64,000 bases of DNA from Psilocybe cubensis. Its lineage: Eukaryota. Shown in pieces: positions 27,098 to 61,723 of this stretch (its first letter is position 1; each line of letters opens with the position of its first letter). The stretch spans positions 2,294,001 to 2,358,000 of the forward strand of contig CM039003.1 of assembly GCA_017499595.2 (NCBI GenBank), in the 5' to 3' direction. The notes below the pieces were generated by a model, which made no database searches, had not been told where the DNA came from, and saw nothing but the letters and a program-made list of their open reading frames with translations. The translations under genes and the position numbers were made by a program.

Positions 27098-27133
<36 letters not shown>

Positions 27134-27495
27134 ACAACACCACCGACGACAGTCACATTGCCATACACACAAGCATACACACACGCATACGCATATGGAT
27201 TATATATTTCTTTTTCTTTGTGTGTAGTTCTGTACTATGTGTTTTTACGACCATGACTTTCCGCGAACGCTATGACTTTGACGTTGACTTTGATTATGCC
27301 TTAACCTCCTCTCTCTCTCTCTCCTTCTCTTTTATACACTTCCTTTTCCTTTTTCCTTTTTCTTTCTTCAGTATATGACTCCGTCTCCGTCTCCGTCTCG
27401 TCTCTCGTTTCGCATACATTCTCAATTCTCATTTTTTACTTTTAGTATACTATAGTACAGTACGTATTAGTATTACATGTCTATGTCTATGTGTC

Positions 27496-27530
<35 letters not shown>

Positions 27531-39493: not shown

Positions 39494-40195
39494 TTACATT
39501 GGTGACCTCGTAATTGAAGCAGGTAAAAATTTTGTGCGGCTGTCATATTAAAAAAAATATCTAACTCTTGTTAATGATCTCAACTCAGCATTTTTTCAGG
39601 GTGGAATGCCTGGACTGTTCCCGCCACTTCGATTGAAAGACTTACAGCCAACCATCCATGTCTATGTTCAACCAAAGCCACTTTCCTCTCGTTTGCTTTT
39701 CAAATTTCGAATCTTCTATCCACCAGGCTTAGTGCTCCACTAGTCTGCTGGGGCCAGTGTTCCATCTGTGCCCCAATAGGGCCATCATTGCGGTTGAATA
39801 TTCTAGTAAGCATGTCTTACTCTTAAGCTGGCCAAAGCACATTACGACGTCATTTCAACCTCCGGAGACCTCCATAATCATGTACTCGATGCCTTTGCCT
39901 GCATTACACTACAAATGTTGGCGCCTGTGTATCTGCAGATGCTGGCCTCAAGGTCGGCCTGCATCCCCGAGGGTCCGTCCATGGCACGTTGCTTAGCGAG
40001 TTGCCGTCTCTCTACTCCCTCGCAACCAAATATGCAGCATTTTCTAGTCAATACGGACAATTCATTCTATTATACCCAAATCCCAATTGTTTTTCTTAAT
40101 TCTTAACAAAAGGATAAATAGCGATGTCCTGCTCATGCGCGGCAGAAACAAACCTCCCACACTCCCTGGCAGAAGTGTACACTACTTACAACAAC

Positions 40196-40300
40196 ATGGA
40201 TCAATTCGTCGAATATTCTGCTCAAGAGACAACCCTTATCGCTATCTCTGATGAAGAGAGAAATGGGACGGCCGGCAATGCGTACTGCATCGTTACTTGA
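40196..40300 (+). CDS. lipopeptide pheromone(-like) precursor A, 34 aa
   Basis: MDQFVEYSAQETTLIAISDEERNGTAGNAYCIVT*: MDxF start, ER dipeptide, C-terminal CaaX; TATA-like GATAAATA at 40113. Confidence 0.85.
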   Translation: MDQFVEYSAQETTLIAISDEERNGTAGNAYCIVT

Positions 40301-41553
40301 TCCTTTACATTTCGAACTGTGCACCTCATGAAACATCATTGTAACTGCAAACAAATCGACACGATCCTTTACCCGGCATTCGGTCTTCTCATTACCCCTC
40401 TTTTGCCTTACACTTCGATAGGCCAATGATTGACATCTGGTATATCGATCATGTCTTCGTAAGTTACTCATAATTTTTCTACAATGAATAAGTTTCTTAT
40501 ACCTCCAAACTAAGGTTCGGACATCAGTCCTATATACCATTCTTATATACTGTTTATTTGCTATATCCTTTACCCATATCCGAAATACTTGCCATTATCT
40601 TTCACTCGGCCAGCGCCTATTTAGTTTCATGCCATTCTATTTATAACTTGATTATACGTTGAAATTTGCAGTTTGTCGCACGCACGGTGACTTTATGCCA
40701 TCACAAGGGCTAATTCTTCCTAATCAACTGAATGGTGAAAAAAACTCTCCAAAAGCTTTATAAAAAAATATTGTTGTTTGAAATTGTTATTGCTAGTGGG
40801 CATCTGTGTTGAAAAGCAGTGATGTACGAAGCGCGAGAAGGCTGTATGTATTGGTGTCTCTAATGGCCCTGTCTCGGGTTGTCCAGACCTTGAGGGTCCA
40901 AAGGTGCTAGTAGTGAGCGTTGGGGTAAATACTGGGACAAAGGACACTCCAACAGACGGAGAAACCGTGTTACAAGCACCAACTTAAGGTGTTATTAAAA
41001 AAAATATCAACTGTGATGCCGTGGTTCAATTTTGGAAAATAGTGCTGATGGCACTGAGTCAGCATTGACAGCCGCCGAATGGGTAACGTCATGACCGCTT
41101 AGTATAAACAGTCACTAACCGTCTCTGACTTTGATGCTAACCGTAACTTTTATGACCGTCATCCATGGGCTGACCGCCCACCACTGGCATGATCTGTTGT
41201 TCCAAAGAAGCTCCTTTGAGTAGTAGCCTTGGGAGGAAAAACCAAATTATTAATAGCCACTGGCAGTGTTGGAATCGATCCTCCTATCCGACTCCTATTT
41301 TGAATCACGTTGAGCAGGAACGACAGTGGGAATTCCACCGACAATGTCTACGACCATCATCATCTTTCCATGCGTGAGATAGGCACCCGGCTTCTCTGAA
41401 ACGCTATCACCACATAAACAACTCACAAAAAATACATCACCAAGCGTTGCAGTGGATCACGATTCCTACCATATTGAAGCTTAACGCCCCCAATATTCAA
41501 CACTCATCAAGTCCAACGTCGTAGGCTGTTTCATTTTCGGCATCCTCTACGCG

Positions 41554-42976
41554 ATGGGAGTTCTTGTATCGGTAATCCGTCAAGGATATCCTCCTAAAAG
41601 TCGCTTCTCAGTGGGCGACATTCCAGACTTGTCCGGAAAGGTTATGATTGTAACGGGAGGAAGTGTCGGTAAGCATTGAAGCATTGTCTTTATGTCTATT
41701 TTCAAAGTTCGGTATTGACTCTTAAATTCATAGGAATTGGAAGGGAGACCGTGAAGGTGAGCATTTCAATAGTTCAGCAGCTTCAATAAATTCATCTTAC
41801 ATTTGCGATATCAAAGGCCCTATTGCATCATAACGCAAAAGTGTATATCGCTGCCCGCAATGAGGAAGCTTCTAGGAAAACAATTGAAGAGCTAAAAAAT
41901 GAGACAGACAAAGAGGCCGTCTTTCTCAAGTTAGATTTGGGTGACTTTCAGTCAATCAAGGCGGCGGTGACGGAGTTTCAGAGGTAAACCGAATGGTTAC
42001 CTGTTGATTTGTACTGGGCTGCACGCTAATACGCTATATCCAGCAAGGAATCTAAACTTGACGTGCTCTTCAACAATGCGTATGTTGAAGTTCCCGTTCC
42101 ACATTTCAGACAGAACGGAGACGCTAAACACACGGCGATCATAGGGGCGTAATGGCACCTCCTGTTGACCTTGTCACTGCTCAAGGATATGACCTTCAGT
42201 TTGGAACAAACACGTTAGGTGCGTGCTTTTAGTACTGATGGGCAGATCTTGGTGACCGGATATATCTGACCTGCTGTTGAAACAGGTCATTTCTATTTTA
42301 CCACCCTCCTCCTTCCTCAGCTCTTCGCCGGAGCAAAGTCAAGCCCAGACAACAAAGCAAGGGTCATCAACACTGCATCAGCAGGTGCAGAACTAGCCAG
42401 TGGTATTGACTTTGATACAATCAAAGATGGCCCTAAACGCAAGAAGAAAGGTACTCATAGGCTCTACCTCCAGAGTAAGCTTGTGCGTTTCTTATCCAGT
42501 ATGCAGTATGCTTCTTGAATTGATGATATCTAGGGAAATGTCGTCTTCTCCAATGAGCTGGCTCGAAGGTACGGCGACAAAGGGATCGTATCGGTCGCTC
42601 TTAACCCTGGAAACATCGAATCCAATCTTCAACGTCATCTGGGCTACTGGGATGGCTTACTTGTCGTAAGTGTCGAACTTGATCAGAATTGACAATGCCT
42701 GTTTAATATTTGACATGATATATCTTCAGAAATCAATCTTGTGGCCCCTTCAATACGGTGCATTGACTCAGCTATACGCTGGAACAACTCCTGAAGGTGC
42801 AGAATTAAACGGAAAGGTATGCATCTTTCACACTCAAGTCATGTAGCTTGGTAGATTTATTGGTTTTTTAGTATCTAATTCCTTGGGCACGCATTGGAAA
42901 TAACCTTGCTACAGCCACACCTAAACTTGGAGAAGAACTTTGGAACTTCATGGAGGAGCAAATCAAGGACGTATGA
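41554..42976 (+). CDS. short-chain dehydrogenase/reductase (retinol dehydrogenase-like), multi-exon
   Basis: IPDLSGKVMIVTGGSVGIG, LDVLFNNAGVM, GYDLQFGTNTLGHF, YLQSK (YxxxK), LNPG. Confidence 0.92.
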
Positions 42977-43222
42977 AATTAGCGTGATTAAATATGGTAT
43001 GAAGCAATAGCAGCAATCATCACATCCGATTATATTATTGGAGTCAAGCGAACGAGTGGGTGGGTTGGATATGGTAGAAGAGCAGTTATAGCATGGTAGT
43101 GGTATATTAGATGTTGACTATATTACATGCATTTCCATAGTAAATATTGTGGTGTGCAATCCTCGATCTATCTACTCTAGTAAGGGTGCGGGTACTAATT
43201 AAGAGGTATCAATTTACCGCGT

Positions 43223-44674
43223 TCAAGATTGTATAAGGTGCAATATCGATTTTACGAGAGGCAGGACGATGAGTCTAGTGGGGCTCAAGATAGGAGGGAT
43301 AACTAATCCTCCCCCCAATCCACGTCGGTGCCATGCATTAACTTTGGTGTGACAGTCAGCGAAGGTTATAATGAGCGTTGAAAGAAGACATACTCATAGG
43401 TTGGGCGAGAATGAACATATCAAAGTAGACCCATAGACGACCTGGCCACCCGCCAACCTTTTTGCCAGTGAACCGCCTCCATAACCGTTCAATGATCAAG
43501 ATGGGACCTTGCATGGCAAAGAACAACGTCGGAAAATGATCAAACCCCCTGCCCATAGAGTACATGGCGCATTCGTGGAACAAACCGGATGCAATGAAAG
43601 CACCAAATAACATTCCGACGTTCCCTGCCAGCCACTTACCTGGGTATCCACCGAATACGAGGAATGTTTGCCGCAGCAGCTGATGCCACCTTTTAGCCCA
43701 AAATTCGTGCATGGATTCAGAGATCCATGGGTTTTCCATGACAGGAGGCCAGGAAAGAGGTGATCCGTCCATAAGGCCTACAGCAATGAGAGTGATAAGG
43801 TCGTAGACCATGCCAAACCCAGAAAGTAGTGCTGATCCGGTAAGAAGGTGAATTATTGTAGAAACAGTGTATCGAGCAACTGGTGCGAGTTCTGGATAAA
43901 ACATGCTTCCTCCCAGTGGTTCACCGACGCCAGGAAAAAGCTTCAGTAGAGATTCCAAAAAGTCGAGTACGAGGAAATTTTTGATAAAGGAGTCTAAAGT
44001 TGCCTTGAGGAAAGCCGAGCGCTCGAGCGGACGTGTATGCTTGGGAATATGTACTCCCTGGCCGAATTTCCACTGGAGGCCTCGAAGTGTGTGTGCGACT
44101 TCCATTGCATCGTAGAACCAGGTGGCAACGTATGGATGTCCGGCAGACTCGATTGCGTACCCATTTACAGTTCCATTCAGAGTGTCCTTAGCCTTTCCCT
44201 TCTTGACTCCAGGACGACTTTCGCCAACCTTCAACATTCCCTCTTTATTGAGGGCAAATTCGAGAGATTTAGCAATAGCAACAGCTGCAAATAAACCTAT
44301 GAAAAATTTTCGGTTATTCTAGTTCACAAATAATGTGACTGGGACGAACATTGACCCCAATTATAAACATTGAGTTCAGGTATTGTCCATGTAAACCGGT
44401 ATGCAGCAACAAGTATCGACGTAATGACACTTGGCAGCATGAGGAGACGAATGGTATAGGTGTCAGGTCTCCGTGTTAGATATGCCAGAAAAACAAATGG
44501 TGCATAGCAAAGGACAGGATATACTGCAGTACTCCATTTGATTGGTATTCGGTGCTGTGGTTCTGGCACTATAGTCCGGAACGCTTCAGATGCGCCCCAA
44601 ATAAGCCTGCAACACAATGTCAGAATATATCTGCAGCGAAAGAAATACACATACTGGTGCTTGAGAGAAAGCAT
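43223..44674 (-). CDS. membrane-bound O-acyltransferase (MBOAT_2, wax synthase-like)
   Basis: LRGLQW, WPPVMENPW, EFWAKRWHQLLRQTF, AFIASGLFHE (catalytic His), FFAMQG. Confidence 0.9.
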
Positions 44675-44972
44675 GTGTAGTTAGGATGTTGCTGAGGGAG
44701 AAACAGGCGAACAAGGCATGTTTATTTGCTTTCTAAGGAAGAATCATCATAACCGTCACCGAAGGCCCACCGTATTGCATACCGCTTCGCTAAAACCGGT
44801 CAATGACTAAGCATAATTATCATTCCTTGGCATGTGATCTTCGCGCGATGATTGGTCTATCCTGATTGACTTGCCAGACGAATGGCTCGCGATAAAAGAT
44901 TTGAGGCTAAGAACTGTGAGATAGCGTCTGCTTGCTTGCCTCTCTATTCCACTCTTCAGTGTGTGTTGGATC

Positions 44973-47069
44973 ATGAGAACACCTAGATTGACGCTGTTTG
45001 GGCGCTCAGTTTTGTTGGTTACTTGCGAGTAAGCATGTCTCTTAGTTGATTTGGAGGGGTATCAAATCAAATCAAAGCCCCTGATCTACCCACTATCTCA
45101 GAATCGCGGCCAATGCCATCTGTTGGATCGTAGCAGCCATATTGTTTAGGAAACATAACGAGAGTCATTCGATTTTAGGTTTAGCCTTATTGGCGTGGGT
45201 GAGGTCTAACTTTTTGTGTTGCAAGTTTCCAATTCCTTACTATACTGTGACCTCCAACAGACCCTGGGATTAAGGCATGGTAGGAGAAATCAGTTCATTG
45301 ACTGCTGATGACTAGAATGTAATCTATAATATCTACCGCAGCGTTAGATGCTGATCATATCAGGTAATTTATGATCGTCTATCTGTTTATGTGTGAGTCT
45401 CGCCATTTTTATAGGCTCACAGTACTCAAAAAAAGGAATTACAAGGCATACCTTTACTGCTTACGATAAAGTGCAATCGATAATGCTACAAGAGGGCTGA
45501 TAAACATTGGGCAACTTTCAGTGACTTGTGGATTGTTTTTCTCCCTTGGACATAGTACCATCGTTATCATTGTGGTAAGGATTTACTTACGATAAAATGC
45601 GAGTAATAGCACAGCTGATCTGTATGATACCAGAATATTGCCATCGCTATCTCTGCTGATGTTTACAACAGAATAAACGGTGTTGGAGAGGTCGGAGGAA
45701 TTGTCGGTAAGTCCCTTTGATGCATTGTCGAGGCATTAAGATATCACATCAAAAATTTAGGCGCGGCTGTATCCGGCTCATTCCTGTTTATTGTCGGTCT
45801 TGCTAATACAGTGATACTATGGAGAATCATCAGGCGCCGGAAGCAGGTACGCTGTTACGTTGTTTTTAGCTGTTCTTCAAAGCATAAGCTTATGTCTTTA
45901 ATCTCAGCAAAAGATTCTCGAGAAACGAAGGCAGAATGGAGAAGAAGTTGAAGACATTAACCACAATCCTAAACACGATCATATGCTTATGATGCGTATC
46001 CTGGGACCTATAATCACATTTGTCAACCGGCCGTGGAAGGTATGCAAAGGTTGATCAAATTGTCAAAGCCATGATCTTATCAGATTTTTTCTACAGATGT
46101 ACCCCGTTGGAGTGCTTTTCGGATTCGGTAAGATTGTAGAAAAGCAATGTCATGCATACTAATTCAACAAACATCATCAGGATTTGATACGGCTTCTTCA
46201 ATCGCTCTAATCGCAGTGTCCGCACTCGCAAAAAAAAGATCTGATGGGTCCTCTATACCAAGCGGACAAATTATTATACTTCCTGTAAGGATGAAACTTT
46301 TGTGTCAACTTTCAATGATGACTGATGATAAGCAATGTGATACAGCTTCTCTTTACAGCAGGAATGACTCTGGTCGACTCAGTCGACTCTATCCTGATGC
46401 TCTATTCGTACACGGGATTCCCTGAGCGCACCTTACTCATCTTCGCGCCAACTTCAAAGGAAAATTCCACTGAGGCCACTCTTCAAAGTGAAAAAACCGA
46501 TGCAATCAAGGAGAAATCGGCCGAGATAGTGCAACAGGCTGAAGAAAAAACATCGACGGATAATAATAGCCGTCCTTCTGTTGAGCTGGAGACCGACAGC
46601 ACCGTAGAGCGGGATACACGTGTAAAGATGAATGTGATGTCTGGGCTTAGTATCATTCTCACCCTCATGAGCATTCTAGTGGCATTCAGGTAAGCGCCCA
46701 CTGGCAAGGCATCACAATGACATATTAAGGTTAACCATCCCCGCATGCTTATAGTATCTCATTGATAACTATTATGAGCCTTATTGGAGAGCAGTGTGGT
46801 GCCTGTGTTTCTGCCGCAGAGGCGGATGATGGTCATGGAGGCGGCCTCGCAGGACGTTGGTGGAGGGGATGGGCGCAGGTAAAATGTCCTCTAACATGTC
46901 CAAGAGCATTGACGTCAATTCGACCCCGTGATAGGCAAGTGAACAGTCAGGGTACATCGGAATCGCTATCGTCGGCGCTTTCCTTGTAATTGTTGTGGGT
47001 TGGTATTCCACTCGTTGGGTGGCGCGGAAATTCAAAAGTGAGGCGTTGCCTCCGAGCTTGCATGCCTAG
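44973..47069 (+). CDS. high-affinity nickel/cobalt transporter (NiCoT, Nic1-like)
   Basis: LGLRHALDADHISAID (HX4DH signature), FFSLGHST, MYPVGVLFGFGFDTAS, LFTAGMTLVDS. Confidence 0.93.
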
Positions 47070-47428
47070 ATTCTCTCTCGGAACAATCGAAAATTAAATC
47101 GAGAATACAATTCAAAGGGACCGTTATACAACTCTCATTTGGAATGCGCGATGTTAAAATATACACCAGTTTGGAGTAATGGAAAAATTGGATAAAAAGT
47201 CTTTCTCAAGCGCCATGGATACTTGAGAGAAGCTGAAAATTATAAAGAACGAAGATAAATGCGATTCCATCCGAGGCCGGATTCCATTGGAAATTACTTC
47301 GGAGTTGAGCTGGGATACAACTGACGCATAGATAGAGTTTGAGCGTTAGTGGTGGAAGCCAAACAATTAAATAACTCACTGATGATATGACGGGTAAAGT
47401 GGACCCAGTTCTTTAATGGACTTGAAAT

Positions 47429-47536
47429 TTAAGCCACGATACAGAACGAGTTTCCGGCACCACCAGTTCTCTCGCCGTCAGAGGGGGTAGAAACGACGAC
47501 GTCACCGGAGCAATTGAAGTTGGTGAAGGAATCCAT
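47429..47536 (-). CDS. lipopeptide pheromone(-like) precursor B, 35 aa
   Basis: MDSFTNFNCSGDVVVSTPSDGERTGGAGNSFCIVA*: ER plus CaaX; TATA at 47616-47624. Confidence 0.92.
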   Translation of the reverse strand: MDSFTNFNCSGDVVVSTPSDGERTGGAGNSFCIVA

Positions 47537-48772
47537 TGAAGTTGTTGGGTGTAGAAGGTTGCCTATATGTTGTAATAGTGCTGCCTGGATCCCAACACAT
47601 AGTATCTAGAGGGTATTTTATATACCTGAGGACAATAGCTGATGGAAAGATCCTTTACACGTCCATAAAACCTTTCCAGTCGCGCCCGCTACAATACTCA
47701 CACTAAAAGGCCATCGCAGAATGGTTCGTTGAAGCGTTTTGATTGTTTAACCATCGACCTCACTAGTACCATATGGCCATAAACCGTTCCAGGCCGAATT
47801 ACAAATCTTGTTTACCAGCCCAACAGGGCACAGCAAAGTTGAAGTTTTTATGGTATAAATTACATACAATAAAGAGGAAAGTTGTTAATTTAATTTTTAA
47901 ACACGTGCAATTCTGGCGGAATGGAGAGCGTATTATTCAATAATTGTTGTTAGGTACCTTGGATCGCTTTTGCATGGAGCTGTTGGACCTACAATGACCT
48001 AATTTGGAAGTTCTTGTGTCTCCGTACCATGGTGTGTGAACTTAATAAAGACGTCCTTGATCTGTCAAAGGTTGACAAATTCATATGATCATGGTCGGAT
48101 CACAGCCACAATAAGACCTAGGATCAAACTTCAGAACAGCCCCTCAACTTACCTCCCATGGGCAGGTATTGTTCAGGTACATAATTTCTTAACTGTAATC
48201 TCGGCGAAGCCGTCTTTTCGAATCAGGAATTTCGTATCTAAAGCTTTGAATTAAGTTTTGATGGCTCAAGTGCTTTTGTAATACAGAACCCGGGCTTTGC
48301 TGCGTAGGTACGCTTGATTGATAACTGTATACACTGATCCTGGGATTTTGAACTTGAATGCAAGGTTCTGCATCACAGCTTCCTTGAACATGCTTAGATC
48401 TGCTTTGATTAAGTTCCAAGTATTCGGATTCAAATAAATTTAATGAACAACCGAATGTAAGGTATTTCTAAATAACTACCAAAGTGGAACAAGGTAAATT
48501 CAAAAATAAGACCAATCTGGAGTAAAGAAAGGATCTGATTAAAAACTTTCCTCAAGCGCCATGGATACTTGAGAGAAGCTGAATAACATATAGAACGAAG
48601 ATAATTGCGATTTGGGTCCGGGCCATTAAATATAGGCAATTTAAGGTGAATCGGAATGGCTTTAATACAAGTATAGTTTGAGTTTGGTGCAACTAAATAA
48701 GACAACTAAATAACTCACGATGATATGATGGGTAAAATGAACCGAGGTATGTCATTGTGAATGGCATACAAT

Positions 48773-48880
48773 TCAAGCTACGACGCAGTATGCGTTTCCG
48801 GCGGTCCCATTTCTTTCGCCGTCGGAAGGGGTAGAGACGACGACATCGCCGGAGAAGTTAAGGTTGGTGAAGGAATCCAT
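48773..48880 (-). CDS. lipopeptide pheromone(-like) precursor C, 35 aa
   Basis: MDSFTNLNFSGDVVVSTPSDGERNGTAGNAYCVVA*: ER plus CaaX; TATA at about 48956-48962. Confidence 0.92.
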   Translation of the reverse strand: MDSFTNLNFSGDVVVSTPSDGERNGTAGNAYCVVA

Positions 48881-49491
48881 TGAATTTGTGGTGTGAGAGA
48901 GGTTGGATCAGGTCGATAACAATGCTACCTGCACACGCTTGGTTACTGGGGGTTATTTTATACCTTGAGCACAATAGCTCGATGGAAGATCCTTTACAGG
49001 GCCACTCACTATCGGGGCTCGGTCTGTCGAGGTCTGCTTGGTAATCTCGTTAACAACGATACCAACAAAAACCATACCGATACTTACAACGATGTACACA
49101 AAAGGCCGACTGAGAAATGGTTCGCAGGATGGAGCGCCTTGATTGTGTACCCTCGACCTCGCCAGAAAACAATTATCATACAACATTCCCTCCGCGCAAA
49201 TCAGTCCAACGGGCCACTGCAAAACTGAACTTTTTGTATTTAACATGAAGCCTTGGTCAGAGCTCTTGGACCTCAGACCATGACCTATTTTAGAAGTTAT
49301 GACATATAAGGTGTTCCGTGCCATGAGAAAATGCAGACGGCGTATTAGGCGTATGTGTAATGCTGCGGCTGCGGTGTTGTGAATAATTATATCTTATCAG
49401 ATAACAACGTGACTGGGAAAGAATATCATCAACAGAAATGATAAGGAATTATGAGAATCACACACAGTAAACTTCGCCCTTGCTTCCCACC

Positions 49492-50265
49492 ATGCCTGTC
49501 GTGGAATTTGTGTGGTGGAATGGGACGGAGGAATTCCTTGGAAATCTGGATGCTTTATTCAAGCCCACCATAAACCATGTTTCAAAGGCTGATGGATGCC
49601 TTCGGTGAGTTGCCTACAATTCCTATATTAGGAGAAGCATGCCCCAAATTGAAACGATTCTGTTTGGAGGATCCTTTTTGGCGTTCAAGAAAACAAAAGC
49701 ATTTTTTGGATGATTGTCGGTACTGCACAATTAGGATTTCTCGGCCATTTAGAAGACCTGCTGACGTGAGCCTAGTTTGGCAGAGTCATGAACACCATCA
49801 AGCGATGATGGATCGTCCAGATTATCCACAAATGGTTGCCCGATTAACGCCCTACCTCAACGGGGAATTAAAGATGAATCACGTCGAATTCAATTCTGAT
49901 ACAGACATTGCGTTCAATTCGCCTAGAACTGGGATTTTGTTTTTGTCGTTGAAGGAAGGTAGCGCGAGTAATGAAATGGAGCGCGCATTGGAACTTTGGG
50001 TGGACACAACTGCCTCGAGTAAAAATGCCAGTCCACCGATTACATGGGGCCCGACGCACGAAGACCCAAACAAATGGATGGTGCTTATTGGGTGGGGTGA
50101 TAATTATGTAAGTTGTAGTTGTTTCTGATCTCTTGTGTAGAGCAATTCTGATCACCTTTGGCCCTTCAGACTGGGGGGGACCTTGCGATTAGTGACAAAT
50201 TAAGGGATTTACATTCCTTTGCGGATATAGAAGTACTGCACCTGAAATTACGAGGTCCAGAATAA
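49492..50265 (+). CDS. dimeric alpha-beta barrel (Dabb/ABM-like) protein, copy 1
   Basis: MPVVEFVWW...GCL, VWQSHEHHQAMMDRPDYP, MNHVEF, SPRT, WG...LIGW; same intron positions as copies 2 and 3. Confidence 0.75.
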
Positions 50266-50792
50266 AGAGAAACTTCAAGTTTATTCTGGATAAATCGTTC
50301 GCGATTTAATTGGTGTCGAGGTGTGCTTTGGGTGTGCTCAACTAGAAAATAATTGGTGACCAGGGAAAAGTGAAGCAGGCCGTCACGCCGATTCAAGACT
50401 GTATTCCCACGGTTTCCCAACACAATTAGTCGAAGACTCGACACTCTGGTTGCACTCTGGAAGTGAAGTCAACAAGATGACCTGAAATTTCTGAGTTGAC
50501 CTATGGTCCTGGACTGTTTTGGACACAATCCTTTTTCACCAATTGCCAGTCTTAATCAAGTTGACTGTAGTTCATAGGTGTCTCTTATGACAGTGTCTGA
50601 TGTTCAATTGCTACTAACTAACCGGCCGCTAGCCTTTGTAGGCACCTATGTTCACTATCTGTCATCGGGTTTGGATGCCACGCAAAACTCATTCTGTTTA
50701 TGTGAGTATATTACTTTTATTAGTAGTATTAAAGTACATTAAAACCTAAAGATTTTCTAAAAGTCTAGATTGGAGGGGGAAATATGTCTATA

Positions 50793-52099
50793 TCACTCTT
50801 TGTGGATTTCCAGTCCCGCTGGAGCACCAAGCGCTGTACGGATATTGGATCATCAATAAATGAAGTCTGGATCATAGCGGCTCGATGGAAATGTTACGCA
50901 CCATCTTTAATAGCACCATACATCAGGAATTGCGACGATACAAGACCAGCAGTCATGATCATCCTAGGGCCAAGGCCCGCAAACAATCCTTTGAAGCCTG
51001 CTTCTCGTGCAAGGACCGTTAGCCGATGAGCCATAGACCCAGTTGGACCATGTCCCTTATTAATTTGCGATAGAAGAGTATCGGCAGGCTAAAGGATTTG
51101 TTAGGGGCATACTTGTGTAGGAAATAAGACGATGCACGTACGTGACTGAGGATTGCAGCTGCAAAGCCGGCAATAATCCCGCTTCCAAGAGAGATACCGA
51201 ATCGCAAGGTACTCGACTCTGCTATCCTACGCTTTTGGTCTTCCGTTGTACTTCGCAGCACAAGTTCGTGGCAAAATTCATTTACTGTGAATTGACCAAC
51301 AGCGTACGGTATTTGTCTAGTGATCGGGTCAACACATGTTGGATAGTATCAGGGTTGGATTCGAATTGAGACTCACTTGCAGAGGATGGGCAAGAACCCT
51401 GCATATAGCTCACGTATACCTCCTTCTCTGGCTATCCGCGTGAAGCCGGAAACAAGGCCTGTTGCAAACCCCCTCTCAGAAACTAGTCGGATTCGAGTCG
51501 CTTCTAGTGGAGTTAACAGGATATCTGCAAAAAACCTTCACTCAGCTGAATAAGTGATTCGATTTCATCAGGTTTGAAACCGCAAAGCTCACTCCGCAAC
51601 TACAGCCGCTCCTAAATATATCGCAGTACGGTTTGCGACGGCGTTCTCCTGACTTCCGGCAACTTGCACAAATGTCTTCTTCCAGTATTCGTACCCCGCG
51701 AATTTGGCACCTCCTTGGGCAAGGTATCCAACAGCTGTAGGACCAAATCCTGTGAGAAAACCACGAGGTCCCTCTGCTGCTAGGAGCTTCCGTGAACCAG
51801 AAACGAAGGAGTGCCCTTTGAACGTCGGGTCTATTTGAATACGCGTTTTAACGACATCAATGGCTACGAATGTGATTGAGTAAATGCTTTAAGCTACTAT
51901 AGGATGTACACATACGAGTCATAGCTCCATGGCTTATTCTGAAATGCAAATTGAAGTGGTGAGGTAGAAAATCCAACAAATCTTGAATGATGACGTACGT
52001 GCAACATAGTGCTCCTGCTAGGAAGAACGAGGTATAATCCTTGCCTGTAAATTGAGGAACGAAGAATGGGTGGGGGGTCGATATCTTGGAATCTGCCAT
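50793..52099 (-). CDS. mitochondrial phosphate carrier (SLC25, Mir1/Pic2 family)
   Basis: [73 protein letters not shown]. Confidence 0.92.
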
Positions 52100-52640
52100 T
52101 GGAGAATAGGTACTTGGGGTATGATGAGGGAATACATGGTTCGAATGCTCTCCTTTTCAGCAAATCCAAGAAAAGACGTGCATGGCGTTTGACCGTTTGA
52201 CGTCACTCTTCAATTGCCCTCCCGCGTTCTCGTCGGTCCGGTAAACATCGGCCCTGAGGCCTCAGTGCATTTCCCACCGACCTTTGTGTAAGGCCACTTG
52301 ACAAACGTCGTCAAAGTTAAAGCGAGCACTGACGGGCGCATAGCGAGCTGCAATGCCTTTCAATTGATTCAGTCTAGTCGGGCATAAATGGTGTCTACGA
52401 CCGAATTTTTGCCCCGGAACGCTTGTTCCGTACCTTGTCCGTACCGCGTTTTTGCAGAATCTTGTACTACATTAACAAATGGTTTTAGACTATAACGGAA
52501 GACAAAATCGTGAGCTTATTAACAACATGAGGGTATCCTTATCACTTGTGTTACACAAAATCAAAACAATCCGATGGTAATACACGCACTCAAACAAATC
52601 GATTCATATCCATTCCCCGCTTCCTTGCACTATGCAGACT

Positions 52641-55330
52641 TCAGAAATCATCCTCCTCATCATCGTCTCCGTGCCAATCAACGCTCTCCAGAAGCTCATC
52701 GCCTTCACTGTACAATTTATCCAACCCGGTTAGCGTTTCTAAATATTTCGCATCGTTAAAGGCTTCCAAAAGCATGGAAAAACCGCGTGTTTCGTATGCC
52801 TTCAAAACCTGGTAGAAATCGACCTATGAGATACATTTAGTGATAAAGCAATGAATCTTACCGTTTCACTACACCCCGTACACCTATCATACGCAGCACC
52901 GACAAGGGGCATCGTTTTAAATTGACCCAAGAAGCCACGCAATTGATGAGGCACTACGCCCAGCACGCCGTTCAATCCCTCGTCAGGTTCAGAATTCGAC
53001 GAATTGTTGGTATTTGGGGGCGGTGCTGGGGCGAAAAGTCTATACACAGTCATAATGCATTTCAGTCGACCTTGGGTTGAGATAATGAAGGGTACCTATC
53101 GGGATGCTGAAGAAGAGAGGCAAGCAACTCCACGGCCGTTGCTGCTGCAATGGGTGCCAAACCTGGTCTAGTTACAGTGCACATTTGGTCAAGGGTCCGG
53201 TCGGTAAGGGACTATAAAAATATCATTCGTCAAATCATCAAAAAGGTGCACAGGAAGGCGTTACTGACATCAGCAGGGGCGACGATGTCGTTGCAATAGT
53301 AGCACCCCAATTTCTGGTGGGGTTTCCCGTCCTTGCCTATGGATAGCGAAGAAGCGCGAGCGCCATGCCGCATGACAAGGTAAGAGTCAAACCCCAGAGC
53401 AGCATTCAGCACTATCTACATGGAATTTTAAGATCAACTCATTTTAACTAATAGATATTTATTGTAAAGAAACGGCGTACCTTCCCTTTCGACGCCGAGA
53501 TCACAGTAGGAAGCCATCTGCTTTCTCTGGAGTCCATGAGAAGAAAGACGGCGTCGTGGTCATCGATCAACTTTTCCATTTTTGCGACATCTGCTATAGC
53601 CTGCGCCATAGATGCAGCATTTGATGAAATAGGGTGTCCTGGCATAGGTATAGAAATGGTGTGGCCGGTGGCATTCTGCAATTAAACAAGATCTGAACTG
53701 AAGTGCTTGATGATTATTGAAAGATATCCCTTACAATTCCAGGAAATATCCTTTTCAATGCTTCGGCTGCAGCTTCTGCCTTGGGCTTTCCTCCCTCCAA
53801 GCAGTCTGAAAACTCGAACAACGGTTGTCGGACTGGATTTGAAAACGACACCTTTCCTGAATCAACAAATGTAATAGTGCGTACACCCCAACCCTTTGAA
53901 GAATTAGCCTACAAGAATCTGAGCTTTGTAAATGGAATACCATTAATGCCCTTGCTACATAACATCCGAGTGTGCCAGCCCCCAAAAGCAAGCATCGAGT
54001 TGACGAGATTTTATCTAGGTCAAGAGAAGGCAAAATGCGCCATCGCATGAGTTTTAAATTCAAGTCAACAGCTTGAGAAGCCAGCCTTGGAATAATGAAA
54101 TGTGATCAACACCTAAGGATAGACAGTAAAGTAGTACGTAGATACCTTGATGGGTCCATCATGGGTGCCAAATCGGCTACACGAGGTCCAAGTTTCCCTT
54201 GGGGATTCTTCTCCCAACCCACGGCAGACGGTCGAAGAGTAGTTTCTGTTGCAGCCTTTGACTCGGCGCCTTCGACGGTAAGAAGTCCAATTTGACTTTT
54301 CCAGGTTGAATTGGGAGATGGGATTTCGGTATCACGCCAGCGCAATATACGAATCGTCGACGTAGCCTCGGGATACAAAGCACGCAAGTACGCAAGAAGG
54401 TTTCTTAGAGGCCATCCAGGATTGTGTGGATCTGAAGAGGGATCAACGAAACCAATTGTGCGCTGTTGAAGATACCATAAGATAATTTATTTGATAAATC
54501 CAACAAGATTACCTCTTGATGAGGGGTGGATGCGTAAAATTGTTCATATTCCTCTACTGGTGAAACCACGATGTTGCCTTCATTTTGCTTCAAGAGAAAG
54601 TATGGCAGTGGGTTATTGTGCGATCTTAATTGCGAATGAATGGAAGAGAGCTAACACCGAGTCGTTAGCATGCAAATTAGAAAAAGAAAAAAGGCTTGTT
54701 ACTCACAGTGTCTCCACCGATCTCTTCCTCGGCGTTCTTCCACCCATCTTCGTGTATCTCCCATGCTGGTTTGGAGACGAAAGCTGGGAACGCGAACCAA
54801 TAATAATACTTGTATTTCTTGAGATCAGCGAACGTAATGACAAAGAATCTGTTAAGTTGGCTTGTATCACGCGTCTTTAGGATATGATCCCAGATCTAAA
54901 ATAGAGACAAGGTAAGGCGGGAAAGCTAATGGATGCAAATCCTTACCAGCTGGGCTTCTTGGTTGAACAGTGCTGTTTTATCGGCTGCTTTGAACTCCTC
55001 GATGGTATTATAGTTCTTGAGAGTACCATGGGCAGACACCGAACCGTGTGGAGGTCTAGAGGTCGTACGTGAGGATTATACAACTACATCCAATTTCGTA
55101 ACTCACTTGAAATGGGTATCAAAAGACTCTGTTCCAACTGTTAGATTGCATGGCAGGGTGATCTCTTGTCCAGTTTCTCTATCAATCACTGTCCTTCCAA
55201 TAGAATAAGATCCGGTTATAGGTACGGCAACGTCAGAAAGCTTCAAAACATCGATCTTGAGATCTGATAGCTTGTGCCACAAAGACGGCTGCACAAGGGA
55301 TGAAAATGGCGCAAATTGTAGGATTGGCAT
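52641..55330 (-). CDS. ATG7: ubiquitin-like modifier-activating enzyme ATG7
   Basis: [94 protein letters not shown]. Confidence 0.97.
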
Positions 55331-56157
55331 TATGAACAATTAATTTCGTTAAGCTGTTAAAGCAAAAGCTATTAACATGAGGCTCTTCAGGAAATATGAC
55401 TGAAAGGCTCACCAAATAGACTTCGCGATACTATGATCTAGATATCAACAGTTTGGTTCAGTGGTGTAGGATGAATGCCAAGTTTCGTTCAGAGGAAAAA
55501 CAATTCGTGATATATGAAAGTTGTGGGATATGCAAAAGAGCTCAAATGGTAGGTATCTGTGTTGTTGCTATGGCGTGTATCAGAGCAAAACAGGGTGAAA
55601 GGAGAGGGAACTTTGTATGAACTAGCATGAGTCTGGACTCGTACTATGCTGCTCGGCATCTGATCTTATCTAATCTGGCCAGTCGCAATGTCAACAAAGC
55701 AACACTTGGCGTCGCTTTACGTTTTTAAACTCCTTGGCTTTTGACTGCAAATTAAACTTTACACATGTTCCTCTGTTGCGTTCATAGCACCCCAAAACGA
55801 GCTCAAAGTCGATAATTGGATTCATAGACAAGTTGACTGTCTGACGTGACGGTGGATATACAGTTGCAGCGTAATGGGAACCCACCTTTTTTAGTCCATG
55901 GTCGATCCCCGTGTCTGTAAATACGATGCTGACTGAAACTCCAAGAAACCCGACATCCAAACAGGGAGGATTATTTGGAGATTACTCTTTCTTGCCGTTC
56001 CACGCTCTAATGCTCTAGAACCTGATGGTCAAGTTCCCATATTGCTTGCGCGGTATGTACTTAAATCAAATTTGCTCATGCTTTCCCTTCTCACATACAC
56101 TGCACTAGCCTTTCTTCCAGATCCTCGTATTGTTGAAGGAAATCGATTCGATTTGGC

Positions 56158-56900
56158 ACGCCCATTGTTGAAATAGTTTCATGGTCGAATTCAAACGTGT
56201 ATACTGCATATCCTGCCGTATTTAACCTGGCCTTCAGAATTTCTCGCCAACGGGAATGAAAGCCCTATATACGCACGTTTTTTAAAAGGATGATACACTG
56301 TTATACCTGGTTTATATGGACGGAGTGCATTCCGGTCTGGCTGAAGAAGATAAAAAGGACAAGTTTCACAGGTTAGTACTGGAAACCATATGGCAAAATA
56401 ATGTATATGGGCGCTCACGACATGCGCACACAGTTTGGGAAACAATGGGACACCATCTAGCCCTCCTGAATCATCCTGAATACCCTCTGATTTTTTGGCT
56501 TGGCTTTTTTTCGGAGACGATGGTTTGCATATGAACCATGTCCACTTTTTGCAGGACCATACGTCCACCTTCACTACAGGCATCACGAAAGAAGAATTGA
56601 TGAATGCATTCAGTCCCAAACAGTCCCCCTGGCCTGGGATCCAACTTCGGAAGACGTTGATAAGTTTGTTTCTTAGCAATTGGATGGGACACTCGCAGCT
56701 CTCAGGTAAGAATTCCCCAATTTATAACATGCTTGCCTACAAACACATCGACCTTTAGGTTCGTCGAAAGATCAGGGACCAACCCTCATCTCATCCTTTT
56801 CTTTCAGATTTACGTAGGGCGGCCGTGCTCAAAATATTTTATGTCAATTTTTCCAGACACCTTTGAAGGACAGGAATGTTTTTGTTACTCCTGTATCAGT
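56158..56900 (+). pseudogene. degenerate Dabb-family copy
   Basis: ACG CCC ATT GTT GAA ATA corresponds to MPIVEI with the start mutated to ACG. SGLAEED, VWETMGHH..HPEYP and MNHVHF fall in different frames with stops. The end coordinate is approximate. Confidence 0.7.
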
Positions 56901-57267
56901 AACTGTACCAAACACTATATCGGACCAACGTTCACCCGGAACACATTTCGCAAACATCAATTCGTACAGTCAATTTCAACTCTGACTAGGACATTTCAAA
57001 TGTTCTAACACTGAAGTCGTGCTTGCAAGGCTCGACAGAAATCAGGTCTAAACTTCTTCGTCACTCGCCCCAACATCTTAAGACGGCAATGCGGAACACG
57101 ACCGTTGATGACGAAACCTTGTCTCATGTAGGTTAAACATGTCCCTCGAGTCTCTGAAACATACCCCACAGCGATGGCCCGTATAAGAGGTGATCGTCTA
57201 CCAACGACTCTTTTGCATCCTCCCGTACACCTCATCTCCAAACGAGCTTATTTACCGTGTCATCAAA

Positions 57268-58066
57268 ATGCCTATTGTCGAAATTGCTCACTGGGCCGCT
57301 GTGAAGAATGTCAAGGAAAATGGTTGCAAGTTGTTGAAGCCAGCTTTGGAAACCTTGAAGAAACAAAAAGGTTGTCTTGGGTGCGTTTCTCCCTGTGCCA
57401 CCGCGGGCTTATTTCGTATCTTATATGTGTTTGGTGATAGGGTTCGCTACGGTTTTGTCGAAGAGCATCATAAACTTTTTGTTTATCTCTTTGTTGGTCA
57501 GTTCGCTCAACCTATTACTATGACCTACGTATCCTGATCATCGATATGGGGTGCTTCTAGTATGGGATAAATACGAGGACCATGCAGCTTTTATGAAGCA
57601 ACCTGATTACCCAGGTGTCCTTGGCATCGAGCAATGCATTAGCGAAGGCGGAATCGACGTGAACCATGTCGAATTTACTGGAGACTTTAACAAAGCTCTG
57701 AATGCACCTGTCATGGAAGTATCCGTTATCAACACGAAGAAAGGCACGGTTAAAGAACTAGTCATTGGATACATCGACACACTCGCGGCCAAGGTTGCGG
57801 CCAAAAATGTCAAATACGAGCCGACCTGGGGAACTGCGAGGGAAAACGACAATAGGTTTTATGTTCTCATTGGATGGGACAGCGTAGACGTTCGTGTTTC
57901 CTCCCTCTTTACTCTTTATTTACGTCTTCTCACTTCGGTATACCAATCCCAGGCTCACAAACACGCGATCAATGATCCCAATTATTTCCATCCATTCGAT
58001 GACGATTTGAAGGCTGCAGCATCTCTCAAAACCTTCCACATCCATTTAGAGAAGGAAAAGACCTGA
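57268..58066 (+). CDS. Dabb/ABM-like protein, copy 2
   Basis: MPIVEIAHW...KGCL, YGFVEE, WDKYEDHAAFMKQPDYP, ALNAPVMEV, WG...LIGWDSV.AH. Confidence 0.8.
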
Positions 58067-58624
58067 TTCATAGCATTTGACGAGGTTTGGTCAAATTTTA
58101 TGTATAAATAACTTGCGATGTATCTAAGCCTCACATCCAATATTGACCCTCATTTATGCATAACACAACCGTGAGCCAGGCAATCGACTTTCTACTCATG
58201 TTCCGACGCGTTCTTTTTCTATTGCGGTCATGTTCACGTATTTTGTGGATTTTGGTAGATGAACAATTAGTAAGTGAGTGAGACGTGTGTAAAATCTTGT
58301 TACGAAGGACGCGCCGGCGCAGTTTTTACATATTACAGTATGTCAAACTTTTCTCTTGTCGAAGTTATCTTAATAATACAACGATGCGAACGAAATTCAG
58401 GGTGCTTCGGTCGATTTCCTGTTTAGGATATCGAGCGGAGAAGGCAATTCTCCGAAGTGTTATCAATATATGTCATCGTTGACTATATAAACACTTGGAT
58501 TTCTCCACAAACTACTGGCTATCCTCAATTCTACACCTGTGAGTACCTAACGGCCCTCAAACCTTCTCTCTCGTTGATGTGATCATACAGATCAGTTACA
58601 GTTGTATAGTGATCACATTCCAGT

Positions 58625-59404
58625 ATGCCCGTCGTCGAGATAGTAAAGGTGTCTGCATCCGAAGCATACAAAGCCGATCCATCGATATTAAATCCAGTAG
58701 CAAAATTTCTGTCGACAGTAGATGGATGCATTGGGCAAGTTTCCCCACATCTGCTTTATGCTATCCTAGTTTTTTGACTCCGTTTAGGTCATACTCTGGC
58801 TTGGCAGAAGAAGACGGAGTGACACTTTATCTCCTCGTCGGTTAGTTCTTTCAATATTTCATTGCTGAGAATATCTTGACTTATTATTTATATGAAGTAT
58901 GGGAGACTCTTGAGCATCACAGAGCACTACAAAGAAGGCCCGGGTATCCTCAAATCGTTGGCCTCGGCCCAGCCATCGATGGTGAACTCCAAATGCACCA
59001 TGTGGAATTTAACAAAGATATATCAAGTGCCCTAAATGCACCTGTCACAGAGATTGTGCGCCTGGCTCTAAAGCCAGGGGTTCAGACTGCTACAAAGGAG
59101 CGTTTATACGAGCTTTTAAAAGACGGCGGGGAAAAGATTGATGCAAAGAATACACACGTACCAGCTATCTGGGGACAATCTACGGAGGATACTCAAGTAT
59201 TTTGGTTTCTTTGTGGATGGGATAGCGTGAAGGTAAATAGTTTTTCCCTTGCTAATGGTCAGCCTTATGAACTTTTTATCGAAGGTTCATACCGATATTA
59301 TTCACGGCGATCTGGCTAATTTCGCGCCTTTTATCGGTGGGATAAATGAAATCGGAGACACAACGGTATTGCATGCTAAGCTGTTAAAGCACAGCACAGA
59401 CTAG
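58625..59404 (+). CDS. Dabb/ABM-like protein, copy 3 (first intron GC-AG)
   Basis: MPVVEIV...DGCI, YSGLAEED, WETLEHH...PGYP, ALNAPVTEI, GWDSV; donor GCAAGT at 58735. Confidence 0.8.
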
Positions 59405-59770
59405 GGATTTGAAAGCTTATTGGATAAATATGACGGCTTTTGGTTGGACTTCCAACTGCCATTTGCCTGGAAGTTGATGTATATAACAATCGAAAAATAT
59501 CTGGTTACTAAGGTTCATAAAAAATTGATGTTGATATATCTCAGCTCTCACTTTCTGTCTCATGTGAGGTTTTATTGGCGGACGTTTGTCCTGGGCCATT
59601 GAGTTCCTAACGCCTTTTGGATTTTGTCGCGTCGCGTCTGCAGTTAAGGTCACGTGCGTTAGATAATTGGTCACGCTGTTTGCTGGCCATTTTCAACACT
59701 GACTGCCTGGCTTGCATTTGACCGCCTCAATTGAATCTTTCTATTGGACTTTGAAGCATTGGCAGGCTTA

Positions 59771-59971
59771 GGCCCCGTTCGGTAACCCTGTTAGAGTCGG
59801 TTAGGTTAGGTTTTCCCCCGCCAAATTTTGCGCCAAGCCGAGCCAAGTCGGTTACCTCTGGTTACGTCTGTCACGCTATGTCACTTTTTGGCAGGCAAAA
59901 CCGTGACAAATCGTGACAAAACCTGACTTAACCTAACCTAACCGACTTTAACAGGGTTACCAAACGGGGCC
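59771..59971. mobile_element. 201-bp MITE, PIF/Harbinger (Tourist-like)
   Basis: TIRs of ~42 bp (GGCCCCGTTCGGTAACCCTGTTAGAGTCGGTTAGGTTAGGTT / AACCTAACCTAACCGACTTTAACAGGGTTACCAAACGGGGCC, 2 mismatches) with a TTA target-site duplication at 59768-59770 and 59972-59974; no coding capacity. Confidence 0.9.
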
Positions 59972-60299
59972 TTAGTAGTCAACTTCATGGATGTGCATCT
60001 TGCATAACTTGGATTCGGAGCAATGCCAGCAACATAACATCCCCCTTTTTTCCGCTGAATTAGACGCTCAACGTCACCTTGAAAGCGCCCGACCTGACAT
60101 TTCGGGTTACTCGGACAAATTTTTTTAGTCATTTCCCAACTTCAAAGAATAATACGAGGTCTTCTTTCAAATGGATTACGAATGGGTTCGGGTATACGGA
60201 CCCCATCCTATCCATCCTCAAGTACGGATATAGTCGTGTTCTGATACTTAAATCGTTATTTCTCATTCACCGGAATAAATAGTGATGACTCATTAATAG

Positions 60300-61096
60300 A
60301 GGTGTAATGGCGCCTCCAGTCGACCTCCTGACTGCACAAGGATATGATCTTCAATTCGGGACAAACACACTTGGTAAGCTTTGTTTCGCAATTCTGGCAC
60401 GGTCAGCCTTAATTTATGTGTGTCAGGTCATTTCGATCTCACCAATCTTCTTCTTCCTCAACTCCTGGCAGGTGCAAAATCAAGCCCGGACGGTCATTCA
60501 AAGGTTATAAATACAGCATCATCGAGTGCAGAACTCACCAATAAAATTTGATTTCGATATCATCAAAGATACCCCCAAACGTAGAAAGACGGGAGCACAA
60601 AGCCTCTATGCACAAAGCAAACTCGTGAGCTCGCTTCATCTGGCAAATTTATAATTGGTTTAACCATCGTTCACCGCGTAGGGGAATGTTCTTTTCTCGA
60701 ATGAACTAGCTCGCAGATATGGTGACCAGGGAATTGTATCAGTCAAGTCTTCAACGTCATCTAGGCCCTCTTGAGGCTAGAATAGTCGTACGTGTTAAGT
60801 CAAGCAGCCTGATGTTCTGGCCTTCTGAACAGCCGTACTATATTTCAGAAAGCAATCACAAGGCCTCTCAAATTTGGTGCGTTAACACAATTATACGCTG
60901 GAACAACATCCGCAGGCGCAAAATTGAACGGAAAGGTGTGTAGCCGTGTCTATATTGCGTAGGCAAATTACTCACAAGCCTTTTTTTGTAGTATTTGATT
61001 CCTTGGGCCCGAGTTGGAAAAAATCTCTCTGCTGCCACACCGAAGCTTGGAAAGCAGCTGTGGGATTTTATGGAGGAACAAGTTCAAGGCTTATAG
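60300..61096 (+). pseudogene. 5'-truncated, disrupted paralogue of the SDR at 41554-42976
   Basis: GVMAPPVDLLTAQGYDLQFGTNTLG is nearly identical with the same introns. The Rossmann-fold exons are missing, the LNPGNI segment is deleted and there are apparent indels. Confidence 0.8.
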
Positions 61097-61615
61097 CGAC
61101 GATACAGAGTATAATTTCTGTCAACCTTATTTGGATATTGCTTGAATACATCCATTGTACTACATTACCAAGTCTGGTCAGTCGCGCATGACCTATCGCG
61201 TCGCGTGCATAGGTACTGATAAAAAGGAAGGAATATCTTTGGCGTAAAGACGTTGAACGAGTCTAACGGTCACTTAAATGGTTCACATTTGATATACAGT
61301 TATTTCATTTGTTAATACAATGTACAAATTCCAAACGGCTTATTGTAATTTTTGACCCGGGTAATAGTAGTATAGAAGCCATATTGGAGTGAAAGAATCC
61401 AAAAAGAACAACTCAACTCAAGCGCCGTGGACGGGCATCTGAGATGTGCTGACATAAATGAAGAACGAATAAATTAATAATTGGTGGAAGTTGTGTTTGT
61501 GTGCGGTGACTGTACCGGAGCAACATGAGGATTTGACTGAAAGATAGGTATACGAGCGGCTTACTGATGGTATGCCGAGTGGTGCGACAGTGTTATGATA
61601 GATGAGTTGGAGTAC

Positions 61616-61723
61616 TCAAGCCACGACGCAGTAGGCGTTTCCAGCCGTACCTCCGTGCTCGTTATCGGAGGGAGTAGAGACGACAATGTCGTCGGAGAAG
61701 TTTACGTTGGTGAAAGAATCCAT
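61616..61723 (-). CDS. lipopeptide pheromone(-like) precursor D, 35 aa
   Basis: MDSFTNVNFSDDIVVSTPSDNEHGGTAGNAYCVVA*: EH in place of ER, plus CaaX; TATA at about 61797-61804. Confidence 0.9.
   Translation of the reverse strand: MDSFTNVNFSDDIVVSTPSDNEHGGTAGNAYCVVA

Follow-up and report, generated by a model that had tools for sequence, protein, structure and literature searches.

Does a cluster of very short CaaX-terminated genes in the mushroom Psilocybe cubensis belong to a B mating-type locus, or does it encode pheromone-like peptides that have no part in mate choice? The question is raised by a stretch of 64,000 nucleotides (nt) of this genome (assembly GCA_017499595.2, contig CM039003.1, positions 2,294,001 to 2,358,000 of the forward strand), which is called the window below and is numbered from its first letter. 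An original prediction, made from the letters alone, had pointed to four open reading frames (ORFs) of 34–35 codons between positions 40196 and 61723 that resemble precursors of lipopeptide pheromones, and had offered two alternatives, namely the edge of a rearranged B locus or a receptor-unlinked, possibly non-mating peptide family. Our analysis favours the second alternative, and the edge of a B locus comes out as unlikely. The four genes, here named phl1 to phl4, are probably genuine, expressed or expressible precursors of a-factor-like lipopeptides that belong to the known 'pheromone-like' (Phl) class and are missing from the deposited annotation.

Four CaaX precursor genes in the window

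All four ORFs translated in the way that had been proposed, following the pattern MD(S/Q)F...E(R/H)-xGxAGNx(Y/F)-C-aaX-stop. They are listed here from their translations, with motif scans in addition for phl1; a slash marks the predicted processing point.

40196..40300, plus strand: phl1, 34-codon CaaX precursor, MDQF...EER/NGTAGNAYC-IVT, the most divergent paralog; peptide MDQFVEYSAQETTLIAISDEERNGTAGNAYCIVT
47429..47536, minus strand: phl2, 35-codon CaaX precursor, MDSF...GER/TGGAGNSFC-IVA; peptide MDSFTNFNCSGDVVVSTPSDGERTGGAGNSFCIVA
48773..48880, minus strand: phl3, 35-codon CaaX precursor, MDSF...GER/NGTAGNAYC-VVA; peptide MDSFTNLNFSGDVVVSTPSDGERNGTAGNAYCVVA
61616..61723, minus strand: phl4, 35-codon CaaX precursor, MDSF...NEH/GGTAGNAYC-VVA; peptide MDSFTNVNFSDDIVVSTPSDNEHGGTAGNAYCVVA

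Every frame ends with a CaaX box that is followed immediately by a stop codon (CIVT, CIVA, CVVA, and CVVA in phl1 to phl4). The N-terminal motif of the MDS/AF type is present as MDSF in three genes and as MDQF in the fourth, and a charged dipeptide stands 12–13 residues from the C-terminus (ER in three peptides, EH in one). The predicted cores are glycine-rich and read NGTAGNAYC (twice), GGTAGNAYC, and TGGAGNSFC. With start motif, processing dipeptide, and CaaX end all in place, the a-factor-type precursor architecture that had been suggested for these ORFs stands as a structural reading of their sequence.

In six frames of the window, the AGN core was carried by just 4 of 160 stop-terminated C-x-x-x tails, and these were phl1–4; a looser motif scan of the 64 kb, in which internal copies were allowed, detected no further copy. 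When the window was simulated 200 times with an order-2 Markov model, the number expected by chance per 64 kb was 0.005 for the tail motif and 0.000 for the full MD.F...core-CaaX-stop motif, compared to four observed, and a chance origin of the four-copy motif is excluded. An ORF of 153 amino acids (aa) that runs antisense across phl1 (40133–40594) was rejected as a gene, as it had no Pfam match and an implausible composition.

The coding sequences (CDSs) of the four genes are 63–80% identical in pairwise comparison, whereas their 300-nt flanks are 48–69% identical. At the peptide level, the other three are 80%, 83%, and 50% identical to phl3, so that the paralogs are recognizably alike. Among phl2–4, the proportion of synonymous differences (pS) was 0.51–0.55 and that of non-synonymous differences (pN) was 0.10–0.20, giving pN/pS ratios of 0.20–0.37 (0.20 for phl2 against phl3, and 0.23–0.37 for phl4 against phl3 and phl2). 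Because the ratios are low while about half of the synonymous sites have changed, phl2–4 appear as old duplicates under purifying selection, in which both frames and peptides have been kept. The predicted mature core of phl1 equals that of phl3 in all nine residues; there are four synonymous differences within it, and the pro-regions of the two genes are very different.

Comparison with pheromone-like peptides and mating pheromones

On sequence features, phl1–4 are assigned to the described Phl class, whose members are not mating-type pheromones. The novelty that the original prediction implied could not be upheld, since excerpts of two papers already describe this class in Coprinopsis cinerea, Laccaria bicolor, Agaricus bisporus, and Pycnoporus cinnabarinus (PMC8305134, PMC4101180); it was first defined in Laccaria by Niculita-Hirzel et al. 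in 2008, as cited in a passage of PMC8305134. The same excerpted paper describes four Phl precursors of A. bisporus with an MDS/AF start, a dipeptide (ER, DR, EH, NH, EE, or DE), a glycine-rich mature part of 11–13 residues, and a CaaX end, three of which resemble the non-mating consensus GGGSGNGAYC of Coprinopsis or GGGSGNNAYC of Laccaria (PMC8305134, excerpt). According to that text, the Agaricus phl genes are scattered, not linked to STE3, and nearly identical between varieties (PMC8305134, excerpt). Pheromone-like precursors are reported to be similar to each other within a genome, whereas those of the B type are very distinct (PMC4101180, excerpt).

The window genes share with the published Phl precursors the MDS/AF-type start, the charged dipeptide, the glycine-rich core ending in GN.AYC, and the CaaX end. 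The window paralogs also resemble each other; within the window they appear to lie away from STE3, and in the three strains compared they appear to show little allelic difference. In contrast, the window precursors are shorter, with 34–35 aa compared to 44–54 aa in Agaricus and 39–65 aa in Pycnoporus. Compared with the quoted consensus alone, their core has T or A in place of G or S and is one residue short of the ten. One copy, phl1, starts with MDQF and ends with CIVT, and the four copies stand within 21.5 kb, interleaved with housekeeping genes; both points set the window apart from the published cases.

With the B pheromones of Flammulina velutipes (FvPP1-3), Hypsizygus marmoreus (PHB1-3), and Pleurotus ostreatus (php-1/2), the phl peptides share the precursor architecture, down to an E that precedes the CaaX box by about 10 residues, and presumably the maturation pathway. 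However, B pheromone genes lie 0.3–5 kb from STE3 and are very different from each other and between mating types, whereas phl1–4 resemble each other, differ little in three other strains, and have no receptor close by in the window. As far as tested, the phl genes thus show neither of the two marks of B pheromones, receptor adjacency and strong divergence. The a-factor of Saccharomyces cerevisiae (MFA1/MFA2) is similar in its short precursor, C-terminal CaaX box, and N-terminal trimming, and it is sensed by Ste3; it differs in being mating-type specific and has no detectable sequence similarity to the phl peptides.

No STE3 receptor gene found within the window

The original prediction had seen no seven-transmembrane receptor in the window, and this was borne out by profile searches, in which none of 443 ORFs matched the STE3 family (PF02076). 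The scan covered the whole window and comprised 293 stop-to-stop ORFs of at least 70 aa and, out of 1088 ORFs of 30–69 aa, the 150 with the highest hydrophobicity, with no match in either set. As a control of sensitivity, the NicO membrane protein was recognized in an exon piece of 41 aa. Within the limits of the scanned ORFs, the window is therefore free of STE3 over the 40.2 kb preceding phl1, through the cluster itself, and over the 2.3 kb that follow phl4. The receptor adjacency typical of B pheromones was not found, as phl1–3 have no STE3 within at least 15 kb on either side; phl4 was judged on one side. No protein-kinase Pfam match was obtained among the window ORFs, so a CLA4-type kinase was not seen, and no convincing coding frame was found at 61.8–64 kb. 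Outside 25.8–27.6 kb, a hydrophobicity scan of the window showed no cluster of transmembrane segments.

The hydrophobic ORFs at 25.8–27.6 kb were considered as a multi-pass membrane protein and rejected, as they are T/C-rich microsatellite-like arrays without a Pfam match. Positions 26055–27526 hold dense T/C-rich and CA-rich arrays of this kind, which give rise to long hydrophobic pseudo-ORFs in several frames.

Relatives and annotation status

To place the peptides among known proteins, phl3 was used as the query of a phmmer search against 1.84 billion representative proteins, which yielded 10 proteins at E<=1e-3 (best 1.8e-7). All nine short relatives among them read MDSF...E.GG.GN.YCVVA. 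Named relatives come from Hypholoma sublateritium (UniRef name 'Pheromone'), Pholiota molesta, and Hebeloma cylindrosporum, and the cores in the relatives include GGGSGNAYC, GGGAGNSYC, and TGGAGNGYC. Residues M1, D2, F4, E22, G25, N29, C32, and V34 are invariant in the 10-sequence family alignment. The nearest ESM Atlas cluster (score 0.90, 134 members, PF08015 on 22% of them) is taken as a lead only.

The relatives from the protein libraries (P0005–P0014) have the same start and a TP.D.E..GG.GN.YCVVA block and are 46–60% identical to phl3, but all nine short ones carry the core twice, with one copy inside the peptide (G.GN.YC-x-x-x) and another at the terminal CaaX box, a second pro-like spacer standing between them. 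In the window genes it occurs once. A scan of soil metagenomes found six loci that encode relatives (L001–L006), four of which show complete precursors, likewise with a single unit. Gene callers tend to omit ORFs below about 50 aa (PMC10282164, excerpt). Because short ORFs are dropped in this way and the metagenome loci show single-unit forms, two-unit forms may be over-represented in the protein libraries as a result of sampling, through the length cut-offs of gene callers. None of the 29 ORFs on the six metagenome loci matched STE3, on contigs of 1.5–5.1 kb, which are too short for linkage. The 5.1-kb contig L002, which holds a single-unit relative, also encodes an integrase core domain (4486–5141, minus strand; rva_4, E 2.8e-28), which suggests a transposable element beside that pheromone-like gene.

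The four ORFs had further been expected to be missed by annotation pipelines. An exact look-up in a collection of 15 billion proteins returned none of the four phl peptides; as far as this collection shows, the four genes are unannotated. A word-index protein search with the 44-aa stop-to-stop ORF of phl3 gave no candidate sharing three words, and five core or CaaX strings of the phl peptides did not occur in a full-text literature search.

Promoters and 3' untranslated regions

A TATA-like box had been noted for each gene, and motif search together with alignment located one 81–88 nt 5' of the ATG in all four.

40114..40120, plus strand: TATA-like box of phl1, ATAAATA, at -82
47619..47624, minus strand: TATA-like box of phl2, TATATA, at -88
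48957..48962, minus strand: TATA box of phl3, TATAAA, at -82
61799..61804, minus strand: TATA box of phl4, TATAAA, at -81

In all four genes the pentamer ATTGT precedes the TATA box by a few to about 25 nt and stands at -95 to -110 from the ATG, for example at 47636, 48975, and 61819 on the minus strand and at 40086 on the plus strand. It would fit an HMG-box binding site, although a motif of 5 nt may also occur by chance.

Downstream of the stop codon, phl2–4 share GT(G/A)AG(T/C) after 50–55 nt, then a pyrimidine-CAG about 125–147 nt further on, and then a conserved block. These motifs resemble an intron within the 3' untranslated region (UTR), and the following features may be assigned.

47233..47379, minus strand: putative 3'-UTR intron of phl2, GTGAGT...TTTTCAG, 147 nt, from conserved splice-site-like motifs
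48579..48718, minus strand: putative 3'-UTR intron of phl3, GTGAGT...TTATTCAG, 140 nt, from conserved splice-site-like motifs
61439..61564, minus strand: putative 3'-UTR intron of phl4, GTAAGC...CAG, 3' end at 61439 or 61450, from splice-site-like motifs
47205..47237 and 48551..48583, minus strand: 33-nt 3'-UTR block, an exact repeat between phl2 and phl3, from sequence comparison

Transcripts of the Agaricus phl genes carry a 3'-UTR intron (PMC8305134, excerpt). No splice joint at the putative introns was found among the contig joints listed for the sequencing runs described below. The 33-nt block is conserved above the level of the surrounding UTR, and its core, GGCGCTTGAG, is retained by phl4 at 61417–61426.

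Transcription and variation between strains

For transcription and polymorphism, the stretch 41900–61899, which holds phl2–4, was divided into 30 bins and compared with the contigs of four sequencing runs (X7, X8, X9, and X10). Run X10 is RNA, because 12 introns of the ATG7 gene (CT..AC joints) were removed within a single contig; three of its 30 bins were empty. An X10 contig with a depth of 14.2 covers position 48841 within the phl3 CDS. Its sole difference among those listed is C>A at this position, which changes V14 to F in the phl3 pro-region; X7, X9, and X8 all have the reference base there. The bins without X10 cover are 47236–47902 (phl2), 47903–48569, and 61243–61899 (phl4). Thus, of the RNA evidence for which the original prediction had called, an RNA contig over position 48841 of the phl3 CDS was obtained, and the bins of phl2 and phl4 were without such cover. 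In every run, contigs broke at 47208/47234 and 48554/48580, because phl2 and phl3 have the 33-nt repeat in common; since the repeat breaks contigs there, the empty bins are read neither way.

The other three runs are DNA from other studies or labels and covered all 30 bins. Across phl2 and phl3, X7 differed from the window at 9 positions in 1373 nt and 5 in 1844 nt, X9 at 5 in 1373 nt and 16 in 8850 nt, and X8 at 3 in 818 nt. The phl2 gene itself was covered by DNA contigs of all three runs (3–9 differences per 818–1373 nt), and phl4 was covered by an X8 contig spanning 60248–61899. Over phl2 and phl3, the three other strains are just 0.3–0.7% different, far less than alleles of a mating-type locus would be expected to diverge, and such low polymorphism, judged from the differences listed, argues weakly against mating-type alleles.

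Proposed maturation and rival explanations

Peptides of the a-factor type mature through the CaaX pathway, which comprises farnesylation, aaX removal, carboxymethylation, N-terminal trimming, and export. From this established pathway we infer how the phl precursors would be processed. The cysteine of the C-(I/V)-V-(A/T) end would be farnesylated, the aaX residues would be removed, and the new C-terminal cysteine would be carboxymethylated. Cleavage of the pro-region after the conserved acidic-basic pair (ER or EH) would then yield the predicted 9-residue lipopeptides NGTAGNAYC (phl1 and phl3), GGTAGNAYC (phl4), and TGGAGNSFC (phl2), which a Ste6-type ABC transporter may export. STE3-type receptors encoded elsewhere in the genome would sense them. 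Since the peptides seem to vary hardly at all between strains, and no receptor gene appears to be paired with them, their signalling may not depend on mating type; they may serve as self or developmental cues without mate discrimination.

Several observations weigh against reading phl1–4 as genuine Phl precursors apart from the mating-type locus. The Pfam model PF08015 scored 13.1 and 14.1 bits on two of the four peptides, below its cut-off of 22, and did not match the other two; such precursors often escape Pfam and BLAST, according to excerpts of PMC4101180 and another paper. RNA cover in X10 was present for one of the three phl genes in the compared stretch. The low polymorphism is weak evidence, because inbreeding and close kinship are described for P. 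cubensis cultivars (PMC11856550, excerpt) and the compared strains are of unspecified mating type. In addition, phl4 lies 2.3 kb from the window end, so that a receptor just beyond it is possible, and published matB loci are large, with 103 kb between receptors in P. ostreatus and 177 kb between subloci in Flammulina. On these last points rests the explanation that phl1–4 are mating-type-specific B pheromones in the outer part of a spread-out or rearranged matB, with the receptors beyond the window end. It would account for a precursor architecture that is the same overall as that of B pheromones, and for four copies within 21.5 kb, which resemble a multi-gene sublocus, and it agrees with the extent of matB in other Agaricales (100–177 kb). 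However, Flammulina pheromone genes stand 0.3–2.1 kb from a receptor and the Hypsizygus searches took in 5 kb on each side, whereas phl1–3 are without STE3 over at least 15 kb. The B pheromones of one genome are very distinct (PMC4101180, excerpt), whereas the glycine-rich cores of the four phl peptides are almost the same and are of the non-mating type. The small strain differences over phl2 and phl3 and the lack of a CLA4-type kinase, reported as B-linked in the Flammulina paper, among the window Pfam matches point the same way, and we do not expect this explanation to hold. The species is possibly tetrapolar (PMC11856550, excerpt), and our literature search found no description of a pheromone/receptor (P/R) locus for it.

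The peptides might also be CaaX-processed secreted lipopeptides that do not act via STE3, for instance lipopeptides acting on other fungi, surface-active or antimicrobial ones, or intracellular prenylated peptides. The conservation of the core shows selection without pointing to a particular target, which suits such a role. Yet in start, dipeptide, and CaaX end there is a gradual transition from this family to true basidiomycete pheromone precursors, and it includes the sub-threshold PF08015 matches; moreover, STE3-like non-mating receptors without known ligands in the same fungi are the simplest candidate partners. We regard this role as improbable. That the ORFs are chance open frames or decaying, functionless relics would agree with their very short length, with their absence from annotation, and with RNA cover for one of three genes compared. 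This is contradicted by copy number (four compared to about 0.005 expected), by selection (frames intact though about half of the synonymous sites have changed, with pN/pS of 0.2–0.37), by the conservation of TATA boxes and UTR blocks, and by relatives in several Agaricales genera and soil metagenomes, so that we give it hardly any credence. The best explanation remains that phl1–4 are genuine precursors of the Phl class. A more specific version of it, which we put forward tentatively and hold to be possible but doubtful, is that the cluster provides a constitutive self-signal, in which the nearly invariant farnesylated nonapeptides, one of them supplied by two genes, would act as autocrine or paracrine ligands of an orphan non-mating STE3-like receptor and would feed into development, for example hyphal communication, the upkeep of the dikaryon, or fruiting, instead of mate choice; the ATTGT motifs would make a single HMG-box regulator responsible for all four genes.

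Because this kind of gene, its architecture, and its location apart from receptor genes have all been published before, the finding adds members to a known family and is not a new system. Precursor genes of 35 residues lie below most gene-calling cut-offs, and four conserved, selected genes absent from the deposited annotation are a concrete example of this loss. A four-gene cluster with three distinct predicted peptides is also a handy start for synthesis, receptor assays, and knock-outs. If the self-signal proposal is true, the function of non-mating pheromone-like peptides and receptors becomes directly testable in a cultivable mushroom.

Neighbouring genes and other features of the window

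Metabolic and housekeeping genes had been described as mixed with the four ORFs, and we recovered adh_short, MBOAT_2, NicO, Mito_carr, and ATG7 matches between them. The genes delimited here are as follows.

41485..42850 (approximate limits), plus strand: short-chain dehydrogenase gene, adh_short with 33.9 bits on exon 41790–41984
43226..44680, minus strand: MBOAT_2 / wax-synthase-like gene, PF13813, E 1.7e-15, covered by a spliced X10 contig
52489..55413, minus strand: ATG7 gene, with ATG7_N and ThiF matches and 12 introns spliced in X10

The MBOAT ORF is 100% identical to a P. cubensis protein and 85% identical to the P. cyanescens counterpart. Further left, the window contains SNF5, a DNA polymerase beta-like gene, two F-box-like genes, Q_salvage, a TPR/Mlp nucleoporin, and RPS20. 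SNF5, autophagy, nickel, and mitochondrial carrier are not mentioned in the Flammulina and Hypsizygus matB texts, which is uninformative either way.

Within the compared stretch, an element of about 209 bp (59767–59975) is bounded by 46-nt terminal inverted repeats that are 93% complementary. Contigs of X9 and X10 skip it (59766->59971), loose ends occur at its borders in X7, X9, and X8, and its bin is about 2–3 times as deep as the bins beside it. The element resembles a multi-copy insertion of the miniature inverted-repeat transposable element (MITE) type that is polymorphic between strains. At 60738, all four runs have 26 extra bases relative to the window, which is either an indel private to the strain of the window or an assembly omission. 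To the left of phl1, two adjacent long single-exon ORFs on the plus strand (35772–37277 and 37865–39490; 502 and 542 aa) gave F-box-like and LRR matches below the Pfam thresholds and may be a tandem pair of F-box protein genes.

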